From the IMG/VR virus record IMGVR_UViG_3300045988_099307: a stretch of DNA of 31,813 nucleotides; one strand, 5' to 3'. A program made the translations under genes and the position numbers. Below the pieces are notes generated by a model. The model saw only the letters and a program-made list of their open reading frames with translations. It was not told the origin of the DNA and did no database searches. This DNA is from a virus. This document shows, one piece after another, positions 1,604 to 31,813 of this stretch (the stretch's first letter is position 1; each line of letters begins with the position of its first letter).

Positions 1604-3475
1604 ATGCAACTTACACACTCTATCGCGCTTGACTTTGGACGCGATACACTCCCTATTACGATTTTTGCAAAGCAGTACGACAAGGAGAGCCGCTTTGTTG
1701 AAATTGTGCCCCTCGAGTGCGGCAAGGATTACACGCTCGAAAGCGGAGTAACTGCTCGCTTGCAGCTTACAAAGCCCGACGGTCATACCGTACTCAAAAC
1801 GGCAACGATTGCAAACGGCGTTATCAAAGTCGAGCTCACGGAGCAAACGCTCGCCGTCGCGGGTACTGCCGTTGCGGAAATCGGGCTTTACAAGGGTAAC
1901 TCCCTTTTAAGCTCGCAAATTTTCTATATTGAAATTAAGCGAGCAGCTTATAACCCCGACGCACCCGCAAGCTCCGACGAATACCCCGCGTTAATTGACG
2001 CGCTCGGCAAGGTTGAAACCTCCGTAGGCTCTGCTAATTCCGCGGCAGCGGCAGCAAACGCAGCAGCAACGAAAGCGGAAACAGCGGCAGGCGGAGCCGA
2101 TACTGCCGCGCAAAACGCGACCTCGGCAGCGTCAGCGGCTAATAATGCCGCAAGCGGTGCAAATACCGCAAAAACGAACGCAAATAACGCAGCCTCCGCA
2201 GCGAATACCGCAGCGGGAGCGGCTAACTCTGCGGCAGCAGCAGCTAACGAGGCAGCAGAGGCAGCAGAGGGCGCGGAAAACGTTAATATCTCCGCTACGC
2301 AAACGACAACGGGAGCGGACATTACCGTTACCAACCGAGAGGGAGAACAAACGACCGTACATATTGACACGCTTACAGCGGTTAATACCTGGGAGGATAT
2401 TAAAAACGCCGTCCGCCTCGGACTCGGAGAAAAACTCTTTCCCGTTGGCTACGAGTTTACCACCCTCGACGCTGATACTACGCAAAATATTATATGGGTT
2501 GTGAGGGCGCACGACCACCATACAGCGGCAAATAATAAGCTCACGCATACAATGACGCTTGAAACAAAGAACGTTTACAGCTTGTCGAGCGGGGCGCAAA
2601 AGGCGGTACAGTACGACGCGACCGAGGCTTTTTATTTTGCGGAACTCGGACTCGCGGCGGGCACTTATAACATCACGATTGCAAATCAAGCCTGGTACAC
2701 CGCCGACAACGGCAAAACGTTTCAATTTGAGCTTACAAAGGCGCTCCCCGTGGGCGGTCAGCTCGTATTTGCTATGACCTATAACGCTACCCTCGAGGGC
2801 AAAAGCGTTAAAAGCTATGCAAATAAGACTACGACAACGGCACTTGAAACCGTTACTCTTACGGAGGGCTCCGAGGGTACAAGCCTCGGTACAACGAACG
2901 GGAGCAGCCCTAACGTAAACCATATGCACCGCGCTATTTTCGGCAGCAATAACTACGCTCAATCCGCCGTCCGTCAATGGCTTAATAGCGCCGCCGTAGC
3001 GGGCTCGGTTTGGACTCCTACTAACGTATTTGACCGTCCCGCGTCCTGGGCGACAAGCTATAACGGTTTTATGCACGGTTTGCCCGCTGACTTCCTGGCG
3101 GTTGTGCAGCCCGCCGTACTTGCTTGCCGTACAAATTCGCTCTTTGAGGTTGAAAGCCTCGACGGTACGGCTTTTGCTATCAATCAGCTTTACAGCCTTA
3201 AAGCGGATAAGTTTTTCCTACTCTCCCGCCCTGAAATTTTCGGGAATTGGGACAGCGAGAGTTACAAGGACGGTACGCAGCTCGAATATTATAACGGTTT
3301 GACGGCGACCGAGCGTATCAAACGCGACGCGGCGGGTACGGCGCGTTACGCTTGGTTGCGTTCTCCTAACCCGTCCAGCGCGATCAGCGCGCGCATTGTC
3401 TACTCCTCGGGCGAAGTGACCAACGACTGTGCGTACTACGGTCACGGCGTAGCCCCCGCTTGTATAATCGCATAA
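1604..3475 (+). CDS. DGR target protein 1: receptor-binding tail protein with a BppU-N-like N-terminus, an Ala/Asn-rich coiled coil, and a C-terminal lectin-fold (DUF6273/FGE-like) domain ending in VR1
   Basis: AGGAGG RBS before the ATG at 1604. The N-terminal 110 aa resemble a baseplate upper protein N-domain. The C-terminus ...YAWLRSPNPSSAISARIVYSSGEVTNDCAYYGHGVAPACIIA is homologous to the TR with adenine-only differences. Confidence 0.9.
   Translation: MQLTHSIALDFGRDTLPITIFAKQYDKESRFVEIVPLECGKDYTLESGVTARLQLTKPDGHTVLKTATIANGVIKVELTEQTLAVAGTAVAEIGLYKGNSLLSSQIFYIEIKRAAYNPDAPASSDEYPALIDALGKVETSVGSANSAAAAANAAATKAETAAGGADTAAQNATSAASAANNAASGANTAKTNANNAASAANTAAGAANSAAAAANEAAEAAEGAENVNISATQTTTGADITVTNREGEQTTVHIDTLTAVNTWEDIKNAVRLGLGEKLFPVGYEFTTLDADTTQNIIWVVRAHDHHTAANNKLTHTMTLETKNVYSLSSGAQKAVQYDATEAFYFAELGLAAGTYNITIANQAWYTADNGKTFQFELTKALPVGGQLVFAMTYNATLEGKSVKSYANKTTTTALETVTLTEGSEGTSLGTTNGSSPNVNHMHRAIFGSNNYAQSAVRQWLNSAAVAGSVWTPTNVFDRPASWATSYNGFMHGLPADFLAVVQPAVLACRTNSLFEVESLDGTAFAINQLYSLKADKFFLLSRPEIFGNWDSESYKDGTQLEYYNGLTATERIKRDAAGTARYAWLRSPNPSSAISARIVYSSGEVTNDCAYYGHGVAPACIIA
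2032..2285 (+). repeat. Low-complexity Ala/Asn/Thr-rich segment (putative trimeric coiled-coil stalk) inside target protein 1
   Basis: Translation is SANSAAAAANAAATKAETAAGGADTAAQNATSAASAANNAASGANTAKTNANNAASAANTAAGAANSAAAAANEAAEAAEGAE. The GCN-rich DNA also produces spurious long ORFs in other frames. Confidence 0.7.
3335..3463 (+). repeat. DGR variable repeat 1 (VR1)
   Basis: Ungapped alignment to TR 3962-4090 (offset 627) gives 12 mismatches in 129 positions, all at TR adenines: 3974, 4005, 4011, 4014, 4028, 4047, 4052, 4055, 4056, 4064, 4070, 4086. Confidence 0.93.
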
Positions 3476-3483
3476 TCGCAAAT

Positions 3484-3501
3484 CCGCCTCGGTAGAGGCG
3501 G
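3484..3501 (+). promoter_or_regulatory. GC hairpin 20 nt downstream of VR1 (candidate DGR target-recognition hairpin)
   Basis: ccgcctc-ggta-gaggcgg: 7-bp stem with a 4-nt loop and no T-run. The same motif follows VR2 and is absent after the TR. Confidence 0.65.
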
Positions 3502-3528: not shown

Positions 3529-3936
3529 ATGAGTGTGCGAAAAGGCGACCGCGGCGAGGGAAAACTGCAAGTGCTTAACAAAGCGCGGGAGCTCAAGAAA
3601 TACACCCTCGGGCTGATAAAATCGGAGAAACATTTTCCGAAGTCTACACGGTGGATATATGCCTCTCCGATAGTAAACGAAATACGGGAGGCGTGCGTAT
3701 GTATTCGGCACGCAAACTCCGTATTTGTAACAAACGACGAGGAGTACACATACCGCCGTATGGAGCAAGTCAAGGCACACGCGCACCTCGACGCTCTTTT
3801 AGACCTGGCGGACGACGCATACGACGCGGGCTACATATCGGGAAATCAAGTAGAGTATTGGACGGGCTTAATACTCAAAACCGACGACCTCTTGAAAGCC
3901 TGGATTAAGTCGGATAAAGAAAAATATCAAAAATAA
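3529..3936 (+). CDS. avd: Accessory variability determinant (Avd)-like four-helix-bundle protein
   Basis: A 135-aa basic helical protein located between the target gene and the TR/RT. It has an AGGAGG RBS and resembles the Avd / 23S rRNA-IVS protein family. Confidence 0.8.
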   Translation: MSVRKGDRGEGKLQVLNKARELKKYTLGLIKSEKHFPKSTRWIYASPIVNEIREACVCIRHANSVFVTNDEEYTYRRMEQVKAHAHLDALLDLADDAYDAGYISGNQVEYWTGLILKTDDLLKAWIKSDKEKYQK

Positions 3937-3961
3937 ATCATAGGGCGGTTACTATATTTGC

Positions 3962-4090
3962 GGTACGGCGCGTAACGCTTGGTTGCGTTCTCCTAACCCG
4001 TCCAACGCGAACAACGCGCGCATTGTCAACTCCTCGGGCGAAGTGAACAACAACAATGCGTACAACGGTAACGGCGTAGCCCCCGATTGT
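3962..4090 (+). repeat. DGR template repeat (TR), non-coding template RNA region
   Basis: The region is rich in AAC/AAT codons (the virtual translation reads RSPNPSNANNARIVNSSGEVNNNNAYNGNGVAPDC). It is the invariant partner of VR1 and VR2. It lies between avd and the RT with no RBS or start codon of its own. Confidence 0.93.
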
Positions 4091-4178
4091 GGGATTAGTC
4101 AGTATTCAAGTAGTCGAAAGACCAAAGCAGCACAGCTCACACAAGGAGCGACCGTCCTAACTCCGAAAGGAGGAAATA

Positions 4179-5279
4179 TTGCGGGCGACAAAGGTACCTC
4201 GCGGGGTAGTCCTTTTATATGCGTCCGCTTTTCTTATGGCATACGAGCAAGTAATTTCCTTTGATAATCTGTATAAAGGCTTAAAAGAGAGCTGCCGTAA
4301 TATCCGTTGGAAAGATAGCACCGTAGGATATGAGGGTAACGCGCTTAAAAATACCTATCGTTTGCGGCAAACGCTGCTTAACGGTACGTACAAAATAGAC
4401 CGATACCAACATTTCACGATATACGAGCCGAAACGTCGGGACATTGTAGCCACAAGGTTAAAAGACCGACAATTTCAGCGTTCGCTCTGCGACAACGGCT
4501 TTTATGAGCAGATTACAAAATCCTTTATAACAGATAATTGCGCTTGCCTCAAGGGGCGCGGCGTAGACTATACGCTAAACCGTATGACCGCACATCTGCG
4601 GCGGTATTATGCCGCGCACGGTTGCGACGGTTGGGTGCTTAAATGTGATATACGGCATTATTTCCAAAGCATACGGCACGACATAGCAAAGGCAGCAATA
4701 TGCAAGCGGGTTACAGATACTCAAATTGCGGAGCGGGCTTGCGAAATTGTGGACTCTTTCGGGGAAATCGGGTTAGGGCTCGGCTCCCAGGTATCGCAGC
4801 TTGTAGCTCTCGCCGTCCTGGACGACCTCGACCATTTCATAAAGGAGCGGTTGAGAATAAAGCATTATATCCGATATATGGACGACTTTATTTTAGTACA
4901 CGAGGACAAAGAGTATTTGCGGCAATGCAAAAAGGAAATCGAGGCGCGCCTATTCGCCCTCGGCTTACAGCTCAACGATAAAACGGCGCTTTACCCATTG
5001 CGCCAGGGAGTAAAGCTCCTACAATGGCGGTTTATCGTTACCGATACGGGCGCGATAATCCGCAAAATGGGTAAAAAGAAACAGAGCAAGCAGCGCCGCA
5101 AGCTCAAAAAGCTATACGCAAAAGAGCGCCGCGGAGAGTATGCGCCAGGGACGGCGCACGAGTCGCTCGTTTCCTGGCTTGCAAATGCCGCCCGCGGAGA
5201 TACCTACCACGAGCGGCTCAAAATGATAAATTATTTTAAGAATATGGAGGCTACATACAATGCAAGAGAATATCTATAA
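4179..5279 (+). CDS. DGR reverse transcriptase
   Basis: An IRYMDDFILV (YxDD) box and RT motifs (IYEPKRRDI, GLGLGSQVSQ) are present. A TTG start at 4179 sits 4-5 nt after AAAGGAGGA. An alternative ATG at 4236 (MAYEQVISFDNLYKGLKE) matches typical DGR RT N-termini. Confidence 0.92.
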   Translation: MRATKVPRGVVLLYASAFLMAYEQVISFDNLYKGLKESCRNIRWKDSTVGYEGNALKNTYRLRQTLLNGTYKIDRYQHFTIYEPKRRDIVATRLKDRQFQRSLCDNGFYEQITKSFITDNCACLKGRGVDYTLNRMTAHLRRYYAAHGCDGWVLKCDIRHYFQSIRHDIAKAAICKRVTDTQIAERACEIVDSFGEIGLGLGSQVSQLVALAVLDDLDHFIKERLRIKHYIRYMDDFILVHEDKEYLRQCKKEIEARLFALGLQLNDKTALYPLRQGVKLLQWRFIVTDTGAIIRKMGKKKQSKQRRKLKKLYAKERRGEYAPGTAHESLVSWLANAARGDTYHERLKMINYFKNMEATYNAREYL

Positions 5280-8074: not shown

Positions 8075-8107
8075 AAGGCGGGGGCAATAAGCCTCCGCCT
8101 TATTTTT
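8075..8107. terminator. Bidirectional terminator between convergent genes
   Basis: aaggcggggg / cctccgcctt hairpin flanked by an A-run on the left and a T-run on the right. Confidence 0.7.
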
Positions 8108-8438
8108 ATTTATAAATTTTTATGTGCATTGCTACACACAGCCCGCGCTCGGAGTTAATTATTTTTTCTACCGATACCGAGGCTTTATTATGGAGATATA
8201 AGCCCCGTATTTTGTTTAAGTCCTTATACCCTATAAAACCTATTTGCTCGTTCTTTTTAGTAAATACACCTATCGTATCGGGATAATCGGCAGTCGGCGC
8301 AGGGTGGAATAATAAATCGTCGCCCACCTTTAACCGCGCTATGTACGTTTGACGGCTCGTGCCGTTTTCGTTTGTGTATGCCGTACCCCATACGTCGCAA
8401 GAAAACTCGTCAATTACTTTTTTAGAAAACAACCCCAT
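8106..8438 (-). CDS. Stand-alone HIRAN-like domain protein (the only convincing minus-strand gene)
   Basis: The start at 8438 (MGLFSKK) lies 7 nt after GGAGG. The pattern VWGTAY...RLKVGDDLLFHP...DTIGVFTKKNEQIGFIG fits the HIRAN fold. The gene has its own promoter and terminator. Confidence 0.55.
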   Translation of the reverse strand: MGLFSKKVIDEFSCDVWGTAYTNENGTSRQTYIARLKVGDDLLFHPAPTADYPDTIGVFTKKNEQIGFIGYKDLNKIRGLYLHNKASVSVEKIINSERGLCVAMHIKIYK

Positions 8439-8452
8439 TTCCATACCTCCAT

Positions 8453-8622
8453 AAAAAAAGTGCGTGCAACTCGTCGCTGCACGCACGAAAAACGCAAGCT
8501 CCGAATTGCTACCACACTAATTCTATGTTTTACGCTATAAGACGCAAAAACGAGCCCGCATTTTTACCGAAGTAAAAAAAGCGCACTTACAGCATAAAAC
8601 AAATTATTAAATTAGTGTGGTA
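8453..8622 (-). promoter_or_regulatory. Candidate structured 5' leader / attenuator upstream of the HIRAN-like gene
   Basis: On the minus strand, a 13-nt perfect pairing (8622-8610 with 8522-8510) encloses 87 nt that include a UUCG-capped stem. This is followed by the hairpin gtgcgtgca/tgcacgcac (8486-8460) and a U7 run (8459-8453) directly abutting the RBS. Confidence 0.5.
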
Positions 8623-8627
8623 CCCTT

Positions 8628-8656
8628 ATTATATCAGAAAACCGCCGCGCTTTCAA
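8628..8656 (-). promoter_or_regulatory. Sigma70-type promoter (TTGAAA-17-TATAAT) driving the leader and HIRAN gene
   Basis: The reverse complement of 8651-8656 is ttgaaa and of 8628-8633 is tataat, with an exact 17-nt spacer. The predicted TSS falls at about 8620-8622, the first bases of the 13-nt pairing element. Confidence 0.7.
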
Positions 8657-8696
8657 TAATAATTGCAAAAAACCGCAAAAAGTTTTGAAAAAGGGC

Positions 8697-8725
8697 TTGA
8701 CAAATACGCATTAAAGGCGTATAAT
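8697..8725 (+). promoter_or_regulatory. Consensus sigma70-type promoter (TTGACA-17-TATAAT) for hicAB
   Basis: ttgaca at 8697-8702, a 17-nt spacer, tataat at 8720-8725; followed by the RBS gagaggag and the ATG at 8743. Confidence 0.8.
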
Positions 8726-8742
8726 ATAAACATAGAGAGGAG

Positions 8743-8925
8743 ATGATACAAACGAAAAGAGCAGACCTCATAAAGCTACTCGAAAAAAACGGTTGGTACT
8801 TAAAAAGAAACGGAGGCGGGCACGACATCTACACCAACGGAAAAGAGAGCGAAACAATCCCGAGGCACAGAGAATTAAAAGAAAATCTCGCAAGGGCAAT
8901 AATTAAAAGGCGGGGGCTCAAATGA
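8743..8925 (+). CDS. hicA: HicA-family toxin (mRNA interferase)
   Basis: A 60-aa protein: LIKLLEKNGWYLKRNGGGHDIYTNGK...IPRHRELKENLARAIIKRRGL, a typical HicA sequence. Confidence 0.85.
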   Translation: MIQTKRADLIKLLEKNGWYLKRNGGGHDIYTNGKESETIPRHRELKENLARAIIKRRGLK

Positions 8926-8974
8926 GCCCCACGCCGCCCGAGCTTAATATATATTTTATTGGAGGTAACTATAT

Positions 8975-9370
8975 ATGAAAAATTCATATCCTATTTTGCT
9001 TATACCCGAGGATAAGGGCTTTACGGTTTATATTCCCGATTTTGATATTAACACACAAGGCGAGGATTTAACCGACGCTATCGAAATGGCGCGGGACGCT
9101 ATCGGCTTAATGGGTATTGATATGGAGGACGACGGAAAAGCGCTGCCTACACCCCGCAAGCTCGATACTGTTAAAACGGCGCAAGGAGAAATCGTAACGC
9201 TTGTAGACGTTGACTTTGCAGAATATCGGCGCAAAAACGAAATGAGAGTAGTTAAGAAAAATTGCACTCTCCCGAGTTGGCTTTGCTATGCGGCAGAAAA
9301 GGCAAATATTAACTTTTCCCAGGCTTTACAAGAGGCACTCAAACGGGAATTGAAAATAACAGACAAATAA
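8975..9370 (+). CDS. hicB: HicB-family antitoxin with a C-terminal RHH-like DNA-binding tail
   Basis: YPILLIPEDKGFTVYIPDFDINTQGEDLTDAIEMARDAI is a HicB N-domain. The gene is adjacent to hicA and has a GGAGG RBS. Confidence 0.8.
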   Translation: MKNSYPILLIPEDKGFTVYIPDFDINTQGEDLTDAIEMARDAIGLMGIDMEDDGKALPTPRKLDTVKTAQGEIVTLVDVDFAEYRRKNEMRVVKKNCTLPSWLCYAAEKANINFSQALQEALKRELKITDK

Positions 9371-9385
9371 GCAAAAACACACTTT

Positions 9386-9426
9386 AGCCCGTCCCCTTTT
9401 GAGAGGGAGCGGGCTTTACTATTTTT
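9386..9426 (+). terminator. Probable terminator after hicB
   Basis: agcccgtcccc / gggagcgggct imperfect hairpin followed by a T-rich tract. Confidence 0.55.
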
Positions 9427-9429
9427 ATG

Positions 9430-9453
9430 ATAAAACGGAGTGATTTTATTATG
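9430..9453 (+). repeat. Gene-junction repeat, copy A (ataaaacggagtgattttAttatg)
   Basis: Shares ataaaacggagtgatttt and ttatg with copies B and C, and ends in the start codon of the transposase. Confidence 0.85.
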
Positions 9454-10497
9454 GGTACTTGCTACAACCACCTTACATTTACAGACCGTCTACAAATCGA
9501 GGCTTGGCAAAAAGCGGGCATAAGCAAGGCGCAAATGGCGGAGCTGCTCGGCGTGCATTTAAGCACTATATATCGGGAATTAAAGCGCGGAGTATATACA
9601 CGCCTCAACAGCGACTTAACCGAGGAGGAGCGATACAGCCCCGATATAGCCGAGGAGAAATACAGAGAAAACCTCAAGGCAAAGGGAGCAGGACTCAAAA
9701 TAGACCACGACCACGAATACGCTACATATCTTGAATACAAAGTATCGGCAGAAAAATACGCCCCTGGTGCTGTCCTCGGCGAAATAAAAAGAAAAGGTAT
9801 AGAATTTAATACCACCATTTCAAAAACGACTTTTTACCGATATATCGAGGACGGCGTTTTTCTCACGATAACAAACAAAGACCTACCCGTTAAATGCAAC
9901 AAAGACAAGCAGAAATACGATAGAGTAAAACCGAACAGGGCACCCGCGGGTAAAAGCATTGAAAAGCGCCCCGAGGAAGTCGCGGAGCGCGATACTTTCG
10001 GTCATTGGGAAATGGATTGCGTCGTAGGTAAAAAAGGCACAAAGAAAACTTTTCTTGTCCTTACCGAAAGATACAGCCGCTACGAGATTATCCGCATTAT
10101 GAAAGACCATACCGCCGCAAGTGTAATAAAAGCTCTTAACGGAATAGAGCGGAGCTACGGAGCGGGCTTGTTCTCAAAGGTTTTTCAAACTATAACCGTA
10201 GACAACGGCTCGGAATTTTCCGACTATGAGGGACTCGAGCAGAGCTGCCGCAAAAATGACTCACGCACAACGGTTTATTATTGCCACCCGTACAGCTCGT
10301 ACGAGCGCGGCTCAAATGAAAATCAAAATAAAATGGTGCGTCGTCATTATCCGAAAGGTATTAGCCTTGATAAAGTTACCCCCGCAGATACCCGAAAACT
10401 CGAAAAATGGATTAACGACTATCCGCGGGGAATTTTTGATTATTACAGCTCTGCGGACATATACGAGGCTTGCATAAACAGCATATTAGCCGCTTAA
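9451..10497 (+). CDS. IS30-family DDE transposase/integrase
   Basis: N-terminal HTH (LTFTDRLQIEAWQKAGISKAQMAELLGVHLSTIYRELKRG) and a DDE core (HWEMDCV...ITVDNGSEFS...YERGSNENQNKMVRR). The start at 9451 (MGTCYNHL) follows the junction repeat. Confidence 0.85.
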   Translation: MGTCYNHLTFTDRLQIEAWQKAGISKAQMAELLGVHLSTIYRELKRGVYTRLNSDLTEEERYSPDIAEEKYRENLKAKGAGLKIDHDHEYATYLEYKVSAEKYAPGAVLGEIKRKGIEFNTTISKTTFYRYIEDGVFLTITNKDLPVKCNKDKQKYDRVKPNRAPAGKSIEKRPEEVAERDTFGHWEMDCVVGKKGTKKTFLVLTERYSRYEIIRIMKDHTAASVIKALNGIERSYGAGLFSKVFQTITVDNGSEFSDYEGLEQSCRKNDSRTTVYYCHPYSSYERGSNENQNKMVRRHYPKGISLDKVTPADTRKLEKWINDYPRGIFDYYSSADIYEACINSILAA

Positions 10498-10541
10498 AGC
10501 ACGTCAAAATAAATTTTTTTGCACTTTTTCGCATTTACCCC

Positions 10542-10570
10542 TTGACTTTTCAGTTAAAAAGTTTTACAAT
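10542..10570 (+). promoter_or_regulatory. Promoter-like element (TTGACT-17-TACAAT)
   Basis: ttgact at 10542-10547, a 17-nt spacer, tacaat at 10565-10570. It directly abuts the left arm of the following hairpin. Confidence 0.45.
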
Positions 10571-10612
10571 AAGTGCGAAAGGTTTTTAAGACCTTACCGC
10601 ACTTATTTTTTT
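10571..10612 (+). terminator. Rho-independent terminator downstream of the transposase
   Basis: aagtgcg (10571-10577) pairs with cgcactt (10598-10604), with an inner aaggt/acctt stem, followed by T7. Confidence 0.7.
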
Positions 10613-10691
10613 ATGGCTTTTGCCTATAACGAGGATAGAGCAACGCAGAGGTGCGACTCGAGCGCGTTATAGGATTTTAGCATAAGGGAAT

Positions 10692-10715
10692 AGAGGGCGG
10701 GCGCGCCCGCCCTCT
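10692..10715. promoter_or_regulatory. Perfect 24-bp GC-rich palindrome (candidate operator or recombination site)
   Basis: agagggcgggcg|cgcccgccctct has perfect dyad symmetry. It lies 33 nt upstream of the 10748 start, and no T-run follows on either strand. Confidence 0.5.
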
Positions 10716-10747
10716 GCTCTCAAAACAAAATGAAAGGAGTAAACGTA

Positions 10748-11005
10748 ATGACGTGCCGATACCTCACATACGAGGACAGAAAGAGTCTCGAGGCTCTTTA
10801 CGCCGACAGCGTAAGCCTTACCGACATTGCCTCCGAGCTCGGAGTACACCTTGCCACCGTTTACAGAGAACTAACGCGCGGCGGCACGGGCGAACTTGAC
10901 AAAAACGGGCGTAGCGGTTACAGCGCCGCACTCGGTCAAAAGCGCGTTAGCGAGAATTTCAAACGCCGCGGCAGACGAGCGGCAAATAATAATAAAACGG
11001 AGTGA
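10748..11005 (+). CDS. Stand-alone IS30-type HTH (HTH_38-like) DNA-binding protein
   Basis: The start at 10748 lies 8 nt after AAAGGAG. CRYLTYEDRKSLEALYADSVSLTDIASELGVHLATVYRELTRG is paralogous to the transposase N-terminus. There is no DDE domain. Confidence 0.7.
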   Translation: MTCRYLTYEDRKSLEALYADSVSLTDIASELGVHLATVYRELTRGGTGELDKNGRSGYSAALGQKRVSENFKRRGRRAANNNKTE

Positions 11006-11017
11006 TTTTGTTATGAA
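10984..11017 (+). repeat. Gene-junction repeat, copy B (34 nt identical to copy C)
   Basis: aaataataataaaacggagtgattttgttatgaa contains the stop codon of the upstream gene (NNNKTE*), an RBS-like ggag, and the ATG of the downstream gene. Confidence 0.9.
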
Positions 11018-11243
11018 CAAGGTACGCAGAAAAGAATTGCAGGAACTCTACGACATTATCTCCGAGGCAAAAGACCGCCTCGAGATGTTGCACGACGAGG
11101 AGGAGGAATACAAGGACAATATGCCCGAAAACCTCCAAAGCTCGGAACGCTACGAAAGAGCAGAGGCGGCGGTAGACGCTCTCGACTCTGCCGTATCCTC
11201 TCTTGAGGAGGCACTCGACTACATAGAGGAGGCGCAAGAATGA
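11013..11243 (+). CDS. Small acidic helical hypothetical protein
   Basis: ATG at 11013 within the junction repeat; codon usage is coherent; ATGA-type overlap with the next gene. Confidence 0.55.
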   Translation: MNKVRRKELQELYDIISEAKDRLEMLHDEEEEYKDNMPENLQSSERYERAEAAVDALDSAVSSLEEALDYIEEAQE

Positions 11244-11791
11244 CAGAGCAAAAAGAGCGCCTCAAGAAACTATATGCCCTCGCCTTGCGCGGCGTTGGCG
11301 GCGAAAAAGAGCAAGCCCAGGCTATATTCGATAAATTACTTAAAAAATATGCTATGACGCTTGATGACCTCGACGACGAGGTTATACAAGAGTACGACCT
11401 CGAATATCACGGCAAAGAGCAAGACCGTATTTTAATGCAGACCGCATATAAAGTTACGGACGATAAAAACGCGTTTAACCACTTGCAATATAACCATAGC
11501 GGCAGAGCTTGCCGTACCCGCCTACGCGTGCGCTGCACCGCTGCTCAAAAGGCAGAGATAGAGTTTTTGTTTAGCTTTTATGTAAGGCTTTGGGAAAAAG
11601 AAAAAGAGGCTTTGTTACAAGCGTTTTTTCAAAAGCACCGAATTTTTGGAAATCTCAAAGACGGAGAAAGCGGAGCGGAGCTTTCTCCCGAGGAATTGTT
11701 AAAGCTCGAGCTTATGATGAAAGGGCTATCGGACGAACAGCCATTAAAGCAGCTCACGGACGGAGCAGAAAATAATAATAAAACGGAGTGA
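11240..11791 (+). CDS. Hypothetical protein with a DUF2786-like N-terminus
   Basis: GAGGAGG RBS. LKKLYALALRGVGGEKEQAQAIFDKLLKKY resembles DUF2786. The C-terminus ENNNKTE* is encoded by junction repeat C. Confidence 0.55.
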   Translation: MTEQKERLKKLYALALRGVGGEKEQAQAIFDKLLKKYAMTLDDLDDEVIQEYDLEYHGKEQDRILMQTAYKVTDDKNAFNHLQYNHSGRACRTRLRVRCTAAQKAEIEFLFSFYVRLWEKEKEALLQAFFQKHRIFGNLKDGESGAELSPEELLKLELMMKGLSDEQPLKQLTDGAENNNKTE

Positions 11792-11803
11792 TTTTGTTAT
11801 GAA
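11770..11803 (+). repeat. Gene-junction repeat, copy C
   Basis: Identical 34-mer to 10984-11017. Confidence 0.9.
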
Positions 11804-12194
11804 ACACGAGCGCTACATAATCAACGACGCGGAAATAGCGTTACTTGAGAAATACGAGGGCACATTATCCCAAACAAAAGACCCTCATAGGTACGATACA
11901 TTCGATAAAAAAACTCTTGCCGCCTTGTGCAGATTGAAAGACCGTAGCAACGATATGTTTTTCAAACGTTATCAAGCCGCTTGTGAAGTTATCGACATAA
12001 TAGCAGAACAAGTCGGCATAAACCCCGATAATTCAGGCTATTGGCTATATGCTCCCGATTACGACGACTCAAGCCCGATTTTAAGACGTATAGAGGAATG
12101 GATTAGCCGAAGCGGCGAAAAGGCACAGTTAAAACGCCGCGTGCAAGAATTAGAACAGGAAAACGCAATTTTGCGAACGCTGATACATAAGTGA
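11799..12194 (+). CDS. Hypothetical protein with a C-terminal coiled coil
   Basis: ATG within the junction repeat; 131 aa; no motif recognised. Confidence 0.55.
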   Translation: MKHERYIINDAEIALLEKYEGTLSQTKDPHRYDTFDKKTLAALCRLKDRSNDMFFKRYQAACEVIDIIAEQVGINPDNSGYWLYAPDYDDSSPILRRIEEWISRSGEKAQLKRRVQELEQENAILRTLIHK

Positions 12195-12203
12195 GGTGTC
12201 TGT

Positions 12204-12407
12204 ATGAACATTAAACCGAATAAACAACCTTGCCCTATTTGCAAAAACCACAAAGGCGGCACGCCGCTTATGATACGGGACGACAACGCAGAAAAACACC
12301 CGTACACACATATTTGTAATTGCCCTTATTGCGGACGCTTTCTTGCTGAAAACTACGAAAGCTCCGACGAAATCAAAGAGGAGGTATCACAATGTGCAAA
12401 CCCGTAA
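12204..12407 (+). CDS. Small zinc-ribbon protein
   Basis: CPICKN...CNCPYCGRF CxxC pairs; GAGGTG RBS. Confidence 0.55.
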   Translation: MNIKPNKQPCPICKNHKGGTPLMIRDDNAEKHPYTHICNCPYCGRFLAENYESSDEIKEEVSQCANP

Positions 12408-12838
12408 AGTGCCCGCAATGCGGACACGAATTTACACCCGAGCGGGCTATTAAATCGGGAACTTGGACTCCCGCGGAGGACGAGCTGTTACTGAACGGCT
12501 ACCAAAAGGAGCGGAAAACCATTGCCGAGCTCTCGGACGAGCTTAACCGTTCCCAGGACGCAACCCGCAACCGCTTATTTGTTCTCCGCGGCGGAGGCAA
12601 GCCCAAAGGCGTTACGGCAAGCGTGCAACTCACAGCGAAAGAATACGACGAAATGAGAGCGGCGCGCCAGGAAGTAAAGAGTGCCCGAAAGCTCGTAGAG
12701 CAAGCAAAGGACACCGAGCGCGAGCTCGCCGCCTTTTATGCCCTCGGTAAGCAGCTTATAAACGCAAGGCAAAACAAGCGAGTTATCGCCCCTCTGTTTG
12801 AGGAACTCGAGCGGCTCGTTAATGCCTACAAGTTTTAG
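12392..12838 (+). CDS. Zn-ribbon plus SANT/Myb-like HTH protein (putative DNA-binding regulator)
   Basis: An N-terminal CPQCGH motif, then WTPAEDELLLNGYQKERKTIAELSDELNRSQDATRNRL (Myb-like); GAGGAGG RBS. Confidence 0.55.
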   Translation: MCKPVKCPQCGHEFTPERAIKSGTWTPAEDELLLNGYQKERKTIAELSDELNRSQDATRNRLFVLRGGGKPKGVTASVQLTAKEYDEMRAARQEVKSARKLVEQAKDTERELAAFYALGKQLINARQNKRVIAPLFEELERLVNAYKF

Positions 12839-12848
12839 GAGGCAAGCC

Positions 12849-13082
12849 GTGCGAGAATACAGGCGTAAAGAATTACGCGAGAGGGAGCGCCTCGGCTACT
12901 CGTGTATATCGGCAGGGCGGCAATGCTGCTACATAATCAAACAAGCAGTCGCCGCAAAGCTACGGGACTTTCGCTCCCGCTTTAAGCTATGGACTACGAG
13001 AGGCAAAAGCTGTAAGCGTTGTTGCTTACGGTGTAAATATTTCGGCTATTGCAGCCCCGATTTTAATAACGATAAGGAGTAA
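12849..13082 (+). CDS. Small basic Cys-rich hypothetical protein
   Basis: GTG at 12849 lies 6 nt after AGGAGG. The track start at 12798 lies inside the previous gene. Confidence 0.4.
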   Translation: MREYRRKELRERERLGYSCISAGRQCCYIIKQAVAAKLRDFRSRFKLWTTRGKSCKRCCLRCKYFGYCSPDFNNDKE

Positions 13083-13087
13083 AAGTT

Positions 13088-13771
13088 ATGAACGACAATA
13101 TTTTACGCGCTATTGAGTCGCTTTGCAACGATATAGCCACCAACACAAACGCAGAGGACAACCAAAAGAGAGCAAATGCAATTTTAGCTCTTGCTTTCGG
13201 CGGGATATTCACGCCCGAGGAAATTGAGGAGGACTACACCGAGGACGACTCCGCAGCGGGAGCGGAAAAAGATAAAATCAAATTCCCGAAACCTGGCGAG
13301 CAATTCGAGTATAACGGCATTAAGTTTACCGCTCTCGGAGAGGAGCAGGGCGGCGTACTTGCCATTGTCTCGGAATTACTCGAGGACGAAATGCCGCTCG
13401 ACGAAAGCAATAAAAACGACTGGCGCACCTCCTCGCTCCGTAAATACCTTAACGGAGAATACCTCGAACAATTCAACCGCGGCGACCTCCTCCCGTTTGT
13501 ATCGGACTTGACCTCCGACGACGGTATGAAAGACTACGGCACCGCCGAGGATTACGTTTTCCTCCTCTCGTGCGACCTTTACCGCAAATACAGAGAGTCC
13601 GTGCCGCGCTTTAATAATTGGTGGTGGACGCTTACGCCCTGGACTTGCAGCCCGTCCAGCGCGAGCTTCGCGCGCATTGTCCACTCCTCGGGCGAAGTGG
13701 GCTACAGCAGTGCGTACAACGGTAACGGCGTAGCCCCCGCTTGTCTGTTCAATCCTAAAATCTTTGAATAA
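13088..13771 (+). CDS. DGR target protein 2: small lectin-fold (DUF6273-like) protein with an acidic N-terminus, ending in VR2
   Basis: AAGGAG RBS. NDWRTSSLRKYLNGEYL...DYVFLLSCDLY...WWWTLTPW...ARIVHSSGEVGYSSAYNGNGVAPACLF is paralogous to the C-terminal domain of target 1. The last 96 nt of homology match the TR with adenine-only differences. Confidence 0.88.
   Translation: MNDNILRAIESLCNDIATNTNAEDNQKRANAILALAFGGIFTPEEIEEDYTEDDSAAGAEKDKIKFPKPGEQFEYNGIKFTALGEEQGGVLAIVSELLEDEMPLDESNKNDWRTSSLRKYLNGEYLEQFNRGDLLPFVSDLTSDDGMKDYGTAEDYVFLLSCDLYRKYRESVPRFNNWWWTLTPWTCSPSSASFARIVHSSGEVGYSSAYNGNGVAPACLFNPKIFE
13649..13744 (+). repeat. DGR variable repeat 2 (VR2), remote from the cassette
   Basis: Ungapped alignment to TR 3995-4090 (offset 9654) gives 12 mismatches, all at TR adenines: 3996, 4005, 4011, 4013, 4014, 4028, 4046, 4047, 4049, 4053, 4056, 4086. 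DNA homology to the TR stops upstream of 13649. Confidence 0.9.
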
Positions 13772-13772
13772 T

Positions 13773-13790
13773 CCGCCTCGATAGAGGCGA
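13773..13790 (+). promoter_or_regulatory. GC hairpin 28 nt downstream of VR2 (same motif as after VR1)
   Basis: aatccgcctcgAtagaggcgAgaaa compared with aatccgcctcgGtagaggcgGgaaa after VR1. Confidence 0.65.
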
Positions 13791-13804
13791 GAAAGAGGGC
13801 AGCT

Positions 13805-14014
13805 ATGACAAACGAGGAATTAAAAGCCGCGCTCGTCAGCGGGTGCCCCGTAGAAAGCGGCGGAATTGTATATAAGTGCGTTTCGGCTATCATTTACCGA
13901 TACCGCAACGGGAAATTTGACATTTCCGCCGAGGTTACGGACTATTGCGGGCACAGTATTTCAATCATAAGCCCCGAGCGGGCAAAAATCGTAGATAGCG
14001 AGGTAACAAAGTGA
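13805..14014 (+). CDS. Hypothetical protein
   Basis: 69-aa ORF with GTGA overlap to the next gene. Confidence 0.5.
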   Translation: MTNEELKAALVSGCPVESGGIVYKCVSAIIYRYRNGKFDISAEVTDYCGHSISIISPERAKIVDSEVTK

Positions 14015-14610
14015 AACTAAAGCAAATCGAGGCAATATTAAAAGCCGAAAAAACAATAATTGTTTCCGAAACGTCCGCTTGTCAATGGCTCGGGAACGGC
14101 GCGGCATTTTATCCCGTATACAATCTCCCGAAACTCACAAAAGACAATATATTTACTATGTTTGATATTACAGAGGAAAAGCGGGACAAGTTTTATTTTG
14201 AGGAGCGCCCGCTCCCGCCACATATAAATTTTGAGGACGGCGACGACAGCGAGCAGTTACTCGAACGAGGAGCAATAACATTTTATGCACAAGGTAGAAC
14301 GCTTGAGCCGTTAAAAACCTCACAAGGTATAGCCTTTATAAACACTCGGTACTTAAAGCCGTTTTCCGATATTGACGCGGGGTATGAACTTTACGAGAGA
14401 ACGACCGCACAAGGGAAACCGTATATCGCGGTAAAGAGCGGGTTTATGTTACTCGGCATTATTTCCCCCTACGACCTCGTTAATGAAACTTTTATAAACA
14501 ACCTCGACGAAATATTGAAGTTATCGAGAATAGCTCTTTTTAACAAGCAGAAAGACGACTCGATAACAGATACCAACACTCAAGTAAAAATGGAGGATAT
14601 GGAAGTATGA
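14011..14610 (+). CDS. Hypothetical protein
   Basis: GTG start 6 nt after GAGGT; 199 aa; no motif recognised. Confidence 0.55.
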   Translation: MKLKQIEAILKAEKTIIVSETSACQWLGNGAAFYPVYNLPKLTKDNIFTMFDITEEKRDKFYFEERPLPPHINFEDGDDSEQLLERGAITFYAQGRTLEPLKTSQGIAFINTRYLKPFSDIDAGYELYERTTAQGKPYIAVKSGFMLLGIISPYDLVNETFINNLDEILKLSRIALFNKQKDDSITDTNTQVKMEDMEV

Positions 14611-14692: not shown

Positions 14693-15400
14693 ATGACTTC
14701 GGCAAACGGAAACAGACAGCACAGGACAAGCTCGGCTCCGAGCGACAGCAAAAGAGCCGCTCGCGGAAAATGTAAGCGGCAATTTATTACCTTTATTATA
14801 TGTGTATTCCTCGTGGGAGGAATTGCAGGAGGGCTCATTGTCGGAGGGGTACAAGCCCTCGGCGGGAATGACGCAAAAGAGCAACCGCCCTACGGCACAC
14901 GTGACGGCAAAAGCGTAACAGAAAACGGCGAGCTTATGCTCATACAAGACGCGGCGGGTTTTACCCCTCTCGATTGCGAGCTTTCGGAGGAACTGCAAGA
15001 GTTTACATATTATATGTGCCGCGCCTATTATATCGACTTTGACTTTACTATGTCGCTTATGTTCTCCGAGTCCTCGTTTAATGCCGCTGCGGTAAGCCAG
15101 GACGGGCACGACTTCGGCTTAATGCAAATAAGGGACTGTAATAACGATTGGCTCAAAGAGGAGCTCGGCGTTACCGATATGCTCAACCCTTACGAGAATA
15201 TCCGAGCGGGTTTGTATATCCTCCGCGGGCTTTTTGAAAAGTACAACGACAGCTCAAAGGTTGTTATGGCGTACAAAATGGGCGAATATGGAGCCTCGGT
15301 GCTTTGGGACAAAGGCGTATACGAAACGACCGCCTCGCAGCGGGTGCTCGCCCAGGCGGACAAATTTGCCGTAGAGAGGAACGGCAGCAATGAACAATAA
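14693..15400 (+). CDS. Membrane-anchored lytic transglycosylase (SLT domain)
   Basis: N-terminal TM helix (FITFIICVFLVGGIAGGLIVGGV). SLT catalytic motifs FSESSFNAAAVS...GLMQI...YENIRAGLYIL. AGGAGG RBS. Confidence 0.8.
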   Translation: MTSANGNRQHRTSSAPSDSKRAARGKCKRQFITFIICVFLVGGIAGGLIVGGVQALGGNDAKEQPPYGTRDGKSVTENGELMLIQDAAGFTPLDCELSEELQEFTYYMCRAYYIDFDFTMSLMFSESSFNAAAVSQDGHDFGLMQIRDCNNDWLKEELGVTDMLNPYENIRAGLYILRGLFEKYNDSSKVVMAYKMGEYGASVLWDKGVYETTASQRVLAQADKFAVERNGSNEQ

Positions 15401-15842
15401 AATAATTCAGTCAATTCATCACGAGCACGGCGAAAATATCCTTAATGGCATAAAACGCTATGAAATAAGAAAGACCGCCCCCAAAAGCGGAAATTTCCCC
15501 TACATTATATACCTATATGAAACGCGACACCCATACAAAGGCTCGGGAGGAGTATTGTTTCCTGGCGAGGGAGCGGTTATCGGCTTTTATGTGTGCAAAG
15601 CGATTATAAAAACGAACGCTTTCGGCGCAGCCCTCTACAAAAGCAACACGCCCGAGGAGGCAGCAGCGAGAAATCGGATAGCATACACGGCGTGTTTAAC
15701 CGAAAAGCAGCTTGTAGAGTACGCGGGCGGCAAAGACATTTCCGTTTATGTAGTGAGCAATCCTGTACGCTTTCCGAAACCTCGCCCGCTCTCGGACTTC
15801 GGCTTAACACGCGCTCCGCAGAGTTGGCAATATTTGAAGTAA
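15390..15842 (+). CDS. ASCH (PUA-like) domain protein
   Basis: IIQSIHHEHGENILNGIKRYEIRK is a typical ASCH N-terminus. Confidence 0.6.
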   Translation: MNNKIIQSIHHEHGENILNGIKRYEIRKTAPKSGNFPYIIYLYETRHPYKGSGGVLFPGEGAVIGFYVCKAIIKTNAFGAALYKSNTPEEAAARNRIAYTACLTEKQLVEYAGGKDISVYVVSNPVRFPKPRPLSDFGLTRAPQSWQYLK

Positions 15843-16080: not shown

Positions 16081-16250
16081 GTGGAGAGAGGCGGAGGAGT
16101 GAGGGGGTGCTCGCAGCGTTGTTGAAAGAGTGTGTAAACTCGTAGAGTTTTCCACGCTTTCAATAATGCGGAGAGTAGGGGGAGAGAGGAGGTGCCTCTC
16201 TCTTTAAGGCGGGCTCCGTCCCGCCGCTCTCTTGCTCCTCTCTCCCCCTT
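16081..16250. promoter_or_regulatory. Candidate replication origin: polypurine tracts and a nested hairpin
   Basis: A 15-bp perfect stem, agggggagagaggag (16177-16191) paired with ctcctctctccccct (16235-16249), encloses the inner hairpin ggcggg-ctccgt-cccgcc (16208-16225). A related purine tract ggagagaggcggaggagtgaggggg lies at 16083-16107. The region sits within a gene-free stretch of about 530 bp upstream of the Rep. Confidence 0.45.
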
Positions 16251-31340: not shown

Positions 31341-31813
31341 ATGGCATTAAGCGGTAGTTTTTATAACTATCCCGTAAAATCATTCGGGCTATATTGTGAA
31401 TGGAGCGCAAGCCAAAGCGTTACGGGTAATTACAGCAATGTTACGCTGAAAGTTTACTTGTCTTACTGGGATTTATACGTAGGCGCAAGGGACGACGGCG
31501 TTATAAACATTGCGGGCAATTCGAGCAATTTTTCGACCGCAGCTATCAGCGAGTCCTCGAGCGGGTGGAAAAAGAAACTCATAGCGCAAAAGACCGTAAC
31601 AGTATATCACGACGGAAACGGCAACGCTAATTGTTACCTCGGCGCCTCCTGGCGATTTAGCGGCACATACTCGGGTACATCTATCGGGACGATTACGGCG
31701 GAGCAAACCGTTTCTCTCGATAAGTTAGACCGTTCGGCTCCGTCTATCAGCATAAGCGTATCAGACATAACGGCAAACTCCGTAAAGCTCTCTGCCTCCG
31801 CGTCTACAACGTG
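31341..31813 (+). CDS. Tail fibre protein, 5' part (continues through the circular junction into 78-1587)
   Basis: AAGGAGG RBS. Translates to MALSGSFYNYPVKSFGLYCEWSASQSV... and is open to the window end. It is in frame with 1-1587 through the 77-bp overlap, giving about 660 aa in total. Confidence 0.75.
   Translation, partial: MALSGSFYNYPVKSFGLYCEWSASQSVTGNYSNVTLKVYLSYWDLYVGARDDGVINIAGNSSNFSTAAISESSSGWKKKLIAQKTVTVYHDGNGNANCYLGASWRFSGTYSGTSIGTITAEQTVSLDKLDRSAPSISISVSDITANSVKLSASASTT
31737..31813. repeat. Terminal direct repeat, identical to 1-77
   Basis: Exact 77-nt identity with the window start. Confidence 0.95.

Follow-up and report, generated by a model that had tools for sequence, protein, structure and literature searches.

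Among prokaryotes, diversity-generating retroelements (DGRs) are the only natural system known to hypermutate proteins in a targeted manner, and those of phages are usually taken as host-range devices acting on tail fibres. The analysis presented here concerns the viral IMG/VR record IMGVR_UViG_3300045988_099307, a stretch of 31,813 nt referred to below as the window, whose positions serve as coordinates throughout. It contains a DGR cassette made up of a large target gene ending in a variable repeat (VR1), the accessory gene avd, a template repeat (TR) and a reverse transcriptase (RT) gene, with the cognate RT and Avd genes adjoining the TR within the same genome. Far from this cassette lies a gene for a protein of 227 aa, called the small target, whose 3′ part carries another variable repeat (VR2). 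A first-pass annotation, made from the letters of the window, had described this gene as a second, remote target of the same TR. The features concerned are collected in Table 1.

Table 1. Features of the retroelement, its two targets and their surroundings in the window
Feature	Position	Strand	Basis or remark
Small DGR target gene, 227 aa	13088..13771	+	List of open reading frames (ORFs); Pfam DUF6273, E 2.6e-8; phrog_9958, E 1e-65
VR2, variable repeat	13649..13744	+	Matches TR 3995-4090; encodes residues 188-219
IMH-like 3′ end of VR2, GGCGTAGCCCCCGCTTGT	13727..13744	+	TR has GATTGT instead
Hairpin CGCCTC-GATA-GAGGCG	13774..13789	+	DNA fold; 29 nt 3′ of VR2
Large cassette-adjacent target, 623 aa	1604..3475	+	BppU_N tail-fibre N-terminus and C-terminal DUF6273
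VR1	3335..3463	+	12/12 mismatches on TR adenines
Hairpin CCGCCTC-GGTA-GAGGCGG	3484..3501	+	DNA fold, z = -4.7; 3′ of VR1
Avd accessory protein	3529..3936	+	phrog_3206 'Avd protein of DGR', E 3e-31
Template repeat (TR), 31 adenines	3962..4090	+	Identical in four other genomes
DGR reverse transcriptase	4179..5279	+	Pfam RVT_1; phrog_1423, E 4e-106
Promoter-like site across joined prophage ends	10542..10570	+	Consensus scan 10/12; boundary between 10554 and 10555

In an ungapped comparison, VR2 differs from TR 3995-4090 at 12 positions, and all 12 are adenines in the TR. With 28 adenines per 96 nt in this part of the template, the hypergeometric calculation gives random sites a chance of 4.9e-8 to land on adenine in 12 cases out of 12. 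VR1 stands in the same relation to the whole TR (12 mismatches, each on an adenine) with a different set of substitutions, reading ACC AAC GAC TGT where VR2 has GGC TAC AGC AGT. The resemblance between VR2 and TR begins abruptly at 13649 and ends at the element termed IMH (initiation of mutagenic homing); further 5′ the sequence is unrelated, so that VR2 can receive no more of the 129-nt template than its 3′ 96 nt. This block, with 28 adenines against the 31 of the 129-nt VR1, lies in frame with the 227-aa ORF, and its transferable part covers 11 AAY codons of the template and 16 codons with a template adenine. Judged from these alignments, the TR does have in VR2 a genuine second target, one that does not adjoin it. 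The first-pass annotation was therefore right about the adenine-restricted differences, the separate substitution set, the homology limit and the remote target they define. The distance of 9.6 kb that it gave to the cassette holds for the TR on the circular genome; in prophage form the gene and the TR are about 22 kb apart.

Whether VR2 is being rewritten at present was approached with six further contigs from a metagenome scan, each of which carries RT, TR, VR1 and VR2, with the genome's own TR as reference. At adenines of that TR fall 80 of the 82 VR2 mismatches. In two of the six the TR is altered at non-adenine positions and VR2 carries exactly the same changes, over TR-VR2 distances of 9.6 to 22 kb, and therefore information flows from TR to VR2. 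This covariation is new and constitutes strong comparative evidence for current rewriting at a remote site. In the variant templates, a CTCCTCGGGCGAAGTG block is swapped for CTCGGACGGTGCGTTG or CACGGACGGCACATTG, and their own VR1 and VR2 match (L231, ERZ825324.1258; L232, VOFK01004251.1; also L005 and L032).

Similarity of VR2 to the TR and VR1 by ordinary homology, or by gene conversion between paralogous DUF6273 genes, might come to mind because both targets have a DUF6273 domain. However, the similarity starts sharply at 13649 and stops at the IMH, the two target genes are not alignable outside the VR block, and gene conversion does not yield differences limited to template adenines as seen here, which leaves this origin with a negligible chance.

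Clustered at 90% identity, the relatives of the small target make up a large family of 643 clusters, of which two count 2162 and 1447 members. In a set of 64 full-length relatives with an identity of at least about 88%, the Shannon entropy reaches 2.15 bits at codons with a TR adenine versus 0.20 elsewhere, and the rate of non-synonymous substitution (dN) is far above the synonymous rate (dS) inside VR2, with dN/dS of 0.08-0.4 in the rest of the gene, where selection is purifying. At 51 loci of the same phage species, 34 distinct 96-nt VR2 alleles were counted. Each RT-carrying contig has its own allele, and repeated alleles stem from one contig fetched twice, with the exception of a single allele found at 11 loci. 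These 11 include L125 and L126, both with visible loss of RT/TR. In L126, a clean 1.37-kb deletion of window positions 3782-5152 has removed the 3′ part of avd, the TR and the RT gene except its last 41 codons, while both target genes are retained; L125 has no RT. More than 100 contigs, inserted at many chromosomal sites, encode exactly the protein of the 11-locus allele. Such a natural RT/TR-deletion lineage with a frozen allele is likewise new, and covers the only two relatives seen without RT and TR.

These frozen copies give some substance to the idea that VR2 is a fossil, namely a remnant of past homing or recombination that is no longer diversified in this phage, since the same gene persists in relatives deprived of RT and TR and is also kept in unrelated phages for which no matching TR was found in contigs of 32-34 kb. 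The idea is nevertheless highly improbable in view of the private allele of every RT-carrying contig, the near-exclusive location of differences at adenines of the own TR, the non-adenine changes that VR2 follows, and the intact IMH and hairpin of the window. Both the fossil and the gene-conversion explanations were rejected because several independent lines (own alleles, adenine-only differences, TR-VR2 covariation and the sharp homology boundary) show VR2 rewriting. It is concluded, with a probability of roughly 0.85, that VR2 is a currently active second target of a single DGR and that its product belongs to the described family of small DUF6273 targets. One mutagenic retroelement of a phage of gut bacteria would thereby rewrite two binding tips, one on a tail fibre and the other on a small, free-standing lectin-like protein.

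The marks by which a target may be recognized are present at both sites. VR1 and VR2 both end in GGCGTAGCCCCCGCTTGT, whereas the TR has GATTGT and diverges after TTGT. Every VR1 or VR2 copy retrieved from public contigs terminates in GCTTGT, and the cognate TR copies (those of the window lineage and of one relative) in GATTGT; the exception is a divergent TR-like copy (L139) that ends in GCTTGT. GC-rich hairpins with stems of 6-7 bp and a 4-nt loop lie 20-29 nt past each VR and are present at every retrieved VR copy, but DNA folding gave none after the TR of the window, and none occurs in the cognate TR copies. In divergent VR2 copies, designated type B, the stem GCGCC-GATA-GGCGC replaces GCCTC/GAGGC, so that pairing is preserved by compensatory change. 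The different 3′ ends of VR and TR and the hairpins presumably correspond to the IMH/IMH* distinction and to the downstream cruciform known from the work of Doulatov, Guo and colleagues on phage BPP-1. On this analogy, IMH and hairpin would function in target recognition. RNA of the TR would be converted by RT with Avd into adenine-mutagenized cDNA, which would replace DNA bearing the IMH-type 3′ end followed by a hairpin; VR1 and VR2 both qualify, and the extent of homology would restrict transfer into VR2 to the 3′ 96 nt. The Avd protein, identified by its PHROGs family, matches the NCBIfam model DivGenRetAVD weakly, under the curated cutoff.

The small target has three parts, namely a conserved helical hairpin (residues 1-40), a disordered acidic linker (41-62) and a DUF6273/C-type-lectin-like domain (from about residue 70 to 227). 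Pfam DUF6273 spans residues 105-220, with the VR at the C-terminus of the domain, and phrog_9958, of unknown function, spans residues 59-227. Structure prediction, advised in the first-pass annotation, was done with AlphaFold2 (AF2) on an alignment with 53 relatives and yielded a model of mean pLDDT (predicted local distance difference test) 74. Helices 3-18 and 22-39 are confident and are followed by a mixed alpha/beta domain, while the linker falls below 50. Foldseek searches with this model returned a DUF6273 lectin-like domain: the PDB yielded a single significant match, to the N-terminal DUF6273 domain of an IgA peptidase from Thomasclavelia ramosa (E 1.7e-5, TM-score 0.49), and among viral models DUF6273 proteins from gut phages come first. 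The diversified surface is located where the lectin-like domain ends C-terminally. Acidic residues clearly prevail in the protein (39 D+E versus 20 K+R), which makes it strongly acidic. No signal peptide or transmembrane segment was detected, the maximum 19-residue Kyte-Doolittle hydropathy being 0.94, and by its sequence the small target is a soluble protein. A membrane anchor at residues 29-41 was considered and rejected, as the hydrophobic run is too short and is modelled as the second helix of the hairpin. The acidic helical N-terminus next to a lectin-like domain, and the lack of signal peptide, membrane helix and tail-attachment domain, had been read correctly from the letters in the first-pass annotation.

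Residues 1-40 rank among the best conserved of the family. When residues 1-50 served alone as query, only short fragments were returned and no alternative domain fusions. The conserved N-terminal hairpin is probably an interaction module and offers a handle, new here, for a search for the partner. Neither the exact look-up of the protein nor the PADLOC (defence and anti-defence) and NCBIfam models gave a match, and PDB sequences searched by profile returned no meaningful one.

Small remote targets of this kind are not new. The novelty implied by the first-pass annotation did not survive comparison with the literature. Wu et al. (2018, PMC5758913) reported many non-adjacent DGR targets within prophages; as in the window, one target is adjacent to the RT and another lies elsewhere in the prophage, less than 50 kb away, but the second targets of that survey were given without functional or positional analysis. 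Small remote DUF6273 targets have been published for phages nd4/nd12, Lelie/CP11 and Toutatis, to which the window protein adds another. In translated searches (tblastn), the small target is 31-38% identical to those of nd12, nd4, Lelie and Toutatis (gp24) over residues 54-226, with E values from 1e-11 to 2e-23, and the two RTs of Toutatis and nd12 are 39-41% identical to the RT of the window. The adenine-only mismatches of Toutatis gp24 and nd12 tgt2 were re-verified (13/13 for each). By sequence, the small target thus belongs to a family described from gut Clostridia phages, the single-domain DUF6273 'target 2' proteins. The members are encoded in the early region of many of these phages, outlast the loss of the DGR and travel between phages as a self-contained cassette.

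A close parallel comes from Baykov et al. (2023, PMC10743442), where 'target 2' of nd4/nd12 is a single C-lec/DUF6273 protein of 234-294 aa with a shorter VR and is proposed to be an Mtd-like receptor binder. Like the small target, with which it shares 34-38% identity, tgt2 is a lone DUF6273/C-lec domain between short helices, has a 3′ VR shorter than VR1, uses a TR in common with the cassette-adjacent target and is encoded 10-12 kb from the RT. It differs in its partner, a tentaclin with N-terminal C-lec and Ig domains instead of a BppU_N tail-fibre protein with C-terminal DUF6273, in its phages, described by the authors in that text as small myoviruses, and in its N-terminus, since the hairpin and acidic linker of the window protein are not alignable and the tblastn matches begin at residues 54-60. 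The small target itself is no tentaclin, having no Ig-like domains and carrying its lectin-like domain C-terminally. A Faecalibacterium prophage paper (2024, PMC11792537) reports for Lelie and CP11 DUF6273 targets of two sizes, 'large and small', whose function it leaves open. According to the iLund4u preprint (bioRxiv 10.1101/2024.10.15.618418), the second VR gene of Toutatis is located 17,480 nt from the TR and is a core gene, present in 98.8% of 173 phages and kept without a DGR. The Lelie/CP11 small target and Toutatis gp24 (the latter 31-32% identical to the small target and located among DNA-metabolism and regulatory genes) are again small DUF6273 proteins with a C-terminal VR, remote from the cassette; in contrast, they belong to another phage genus with 54-kb myovirus-type genomes, depend on another TR and are accompanied by a Hoc-like tentaclin. 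In the published papers, the Lelie VRs come with no read-level variation, whereas here TR-VR2 covariation across genomes supports activity. The early-operon position of such genes goes uncommented in the discussion passages of these last three reports. In the RefSeq entry of FP_Toutatis, the TR itself is annotated as a coding sequence for a 50-aa 'DUF6273 domain-containing protein', gp80 (NC_047915.1 49048-49200; L145 9049-9201), which is an annotation artefact.

The genomic setting bears on function. The first 77 nt of the window equal the last 77 (1-77 and 31737-31813) in the manner of an assembler overlap, and the sequence therefore represents a closed circular, complete genome of 31,736 bp; a DUF859 tail gene runs across the window ends. 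Tail genes, the large target, Avd, TR and RT come first, followed by a tail-assembly-like protein, holin and endolysin. After a strong terminator at 8075 come divergent consensus promoters (8628-8725), a HicB-like protein and an IS30-family transposase (9427-10497), then small genes, the small target, an SLT-domain protein and a rolling-circle Rep (16322), and lastly an ArpU/DUF1492-like regulator (17363), HNH, terminase, head genes and tail genes. The small target gene is thus placed downstream of the promoters at 8628-8725 and 10542-10570 and upstream of Rep, the ArpU-like regulator and terminase, about 3 kb from the left end of the prophage; a consensus scan found no terminator-like site on the plus strand from 8366 to 14439. 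Because of this synteny and the consensus scans, the gene is assigned to an early/replication transcription unit, upstream of what is probably the late activator. The site at 10542-10570 is formed when the prophage ends are joined, its -35 element (TTGACT) coming from the right end and its -10 element (TACAAT) from the left end, 17 nt apart in the circle. As a candidate junction promoter it points into the operon with the small target; the site resembles the junction promoters of IS circles. In the prophage-form loci no TR or RT occurs within ±10 kb of the small target, because the cassette is then about 22 kb away. The first-pass annotation had placed the gene among small early DNA-binding proteins: the early region is upheld, whereas only one neighbour (12392-12838) has a DNA-binding match, and a weak one.

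An early-region location is found elsewhere too. Toutatis gp24 is flanked by genes for prohibitin, a methyltransferase and a regulator, and nd12 tgt2 comes after small genes and a transposase of the IS30 type. A lambdoid prophage unrelated to these has the target gene downstream of its CI/Cro switch, 10 kb ahead of TerL, with VRR_NUC/DUF3850 on one side and DUF4406/PcfJ on the other. From phages that are otherwise unrelated, ten IMG/VR contigs have in common with the window only the block from 13064/13086 to 13784/13806, at 82-90% nucleotide identity. This block comprises the ribosome-binding site (RBS), the ORF and the IMH and ends just beyond the hairpin, and none of the neighbour genes is conserved between lineages. 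According to these comparisons, RBS, ORF, IMH and hairpin constitute a self-contained cassette of the early operon that has moved between unrelated phages. A target mobile together with its recognition elements is new here. For the type-B phages, represented by contigs such as IMGVR_UViG_3300029888_000105 and ERZ773227.536, no GenBank relatives were found.

Where the small target acts can be stated less firmly. The view taken here is that its site of action is extracellular: set free by lysis or held loosely on the virion, it would bind surface ligands that vary, a possibility to which slightly less than an even chance is given; for the binder to be extracellular or virion-associated as such, the estimate extends from tentative up to that same level. 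Beside this and the intracellular role treated below, a sizeable share of the probability is assigned to neither. Several points weigh against the account developed here. The confidence of the structure model is moderate (pLDDT 74, pTM, the predicted TM-score, 0.63). Classical C-type lectins, from snake venom and other sources, match it weakly, with Foldseek E values above 0.1. The promoter and terminator calls are consensus matches only. Loss of RT/TR is visible in only 2 of the 11 frozen-allele loci (L125 and L126). Finally, three type-B contigs (32-34 kb) have a single copy of the 3′ motif each, and a matching TR may therefore be absent, within the 32-34 kb seen.

A firm place in the virion, as an Mtd-like receptor-binding subunit or adaptor docked on the tail via the N-terminal hairpin and encoded outside the structural module, is a tentative alternative. 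It is the guess published for nd4/nd12 tgt2 (Baykov et al.) and for Toutatis gp24 (iLund4u preprint). Most viral DGR targets carry tail-protein annotations (PMC8144416). The best-characterized DGR target of a phage, Mtd from Bordetella phage BPP-1, binds a receptor and resembles the small target in its C-terminal VR on a C-type-lectin-type fold, its template-adenine diversification and its IMH with downstream hairpin. The TR, and hence the design of the binding site, is common to the small target and a tail-fibre protein (BppU_N plus DUF6273), and the strongly conserved, predicted helical first 40 residues are what a docking module would look like. Mtd is, however, a trimeric tail-fibre tip whose N-terminal domains are a beta-prism and a beta-sandwich and whose gene adjoins its cassette in the structural module; in the AF2 model of the small target a helical hairpin and disordered linker take the place of these attachment domains, and Mtd is absent from the 50 best PDB fold matches. 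Moreover, at least four phage lineages, unrelated and differing in tail type, have the gene in the early operon, and its N-terminus is near-identical in phages otherwise without nucleotide similarity; a docking partner in the virion would thus need to be conserved yet not detectably shared. The best solved-structure match (PDB 9qa6; PMC12402451) is part of a secreted, cell-wall-anchored protease, undiversified, to which the corresponding passages of that paper assign no ligand.

From the early-operon position and the portability of the gene it follows that a non-structural role is plausible. In its broad form, this means that the small target is no virion component at all and is instead an early, portable diversified-binder cassette (RBS, ORF, IMH and hairpin) whose product acts intracellularly or is released, which is rather unlikely. 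Mushu tentaclin, another DUF6273 DGR target, is reported to have a non-virion role (bioRxiv 10.64898/2026.05.08.723808); it is expressed in lysogens and secreted, and non-virion roles therefore have a precedent. In its narrow form, proposed as one option in the first-pass annotation, a hypervariable binder would act early within the cell under infection, where its object might be a host defence or takeover target that varies. Such a role is unlikely, even though the early position, the lack of signal peptide or transmembrane segment, the strong acidity and a moron-like, autonomous cassette with non-conserved neighbours would all suit it, and bacterial intracellular DGR targets are described (PMC10907252, PMC7517822). 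No phage precedent for an intracellular DGR target is known, PADLOC returned no defence or anti-defence match, no partner was found, and the characterized DGR domains of C-type-lectin fold bind extracellular ligands. A non-virion binder, if true, would be the first case of a phage using its DGR for something neither structural nor receptor-binding, with the conserved N-terminal hairpin linking recognition that varies to a partner that does not; a non-structural protein of this kind would widen the view of what phage DGRs are for. A small target acting instead as a detachable receptor binder would be relevant to host-range prediction in gut viromes.

Some further observations concern the integration of this phage, which has no close relative among GenBank phages by megablast with 25 kb of the window. 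Integration occurs via the IS30-family transposase (NF033563, 226 bits) and not via an integrase. The left end of the prophage is exactly at 10555 and adjoins at least 12 different host flanks (L122-L129, L009-L013, L147-L160). Inspected by eye, the prophage ends carry imperfect inverted repeats, TAAAAAGT...AAGTGCGAAA versus TGAAAAGT...AAATGCGAAA. In the 60 nt left of the prophage end, viewed in L122, L123, L127, L128, L009, L147 and L160, most insertions are found 25-30 nt upstream of a host promoter that points leftward (TTGACA ... TATAAT, minus strand), which suggests that integration favours promoter-upstream DNA; one insertion site is in front of the rimP-nusA-infB operon.

Other observations concern the early region. 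Between the junction promoter and the first early gene, a perfect 10-bp GC hairpin without a T-run (10697-10722, GAGGGCGGGC/GCCCGCCCTC) may be a regulatory or attenuator structure. The SLT lytic-transglycosylase-domain protein (14693-15400) is encoded here, apart from holin and endolysin, and the N-terminus of the next protein (15390-15842) matches the candidate defence model PDC-M11B (E 9e-10). Just 5′ of the Rep gene (REP_ORF2-G2P), 48 nt (16116-16163) are 96% identical to Gokushovirus WZ-2015a (KT264833) and may represent a shared replication-origin or nick-site motif.

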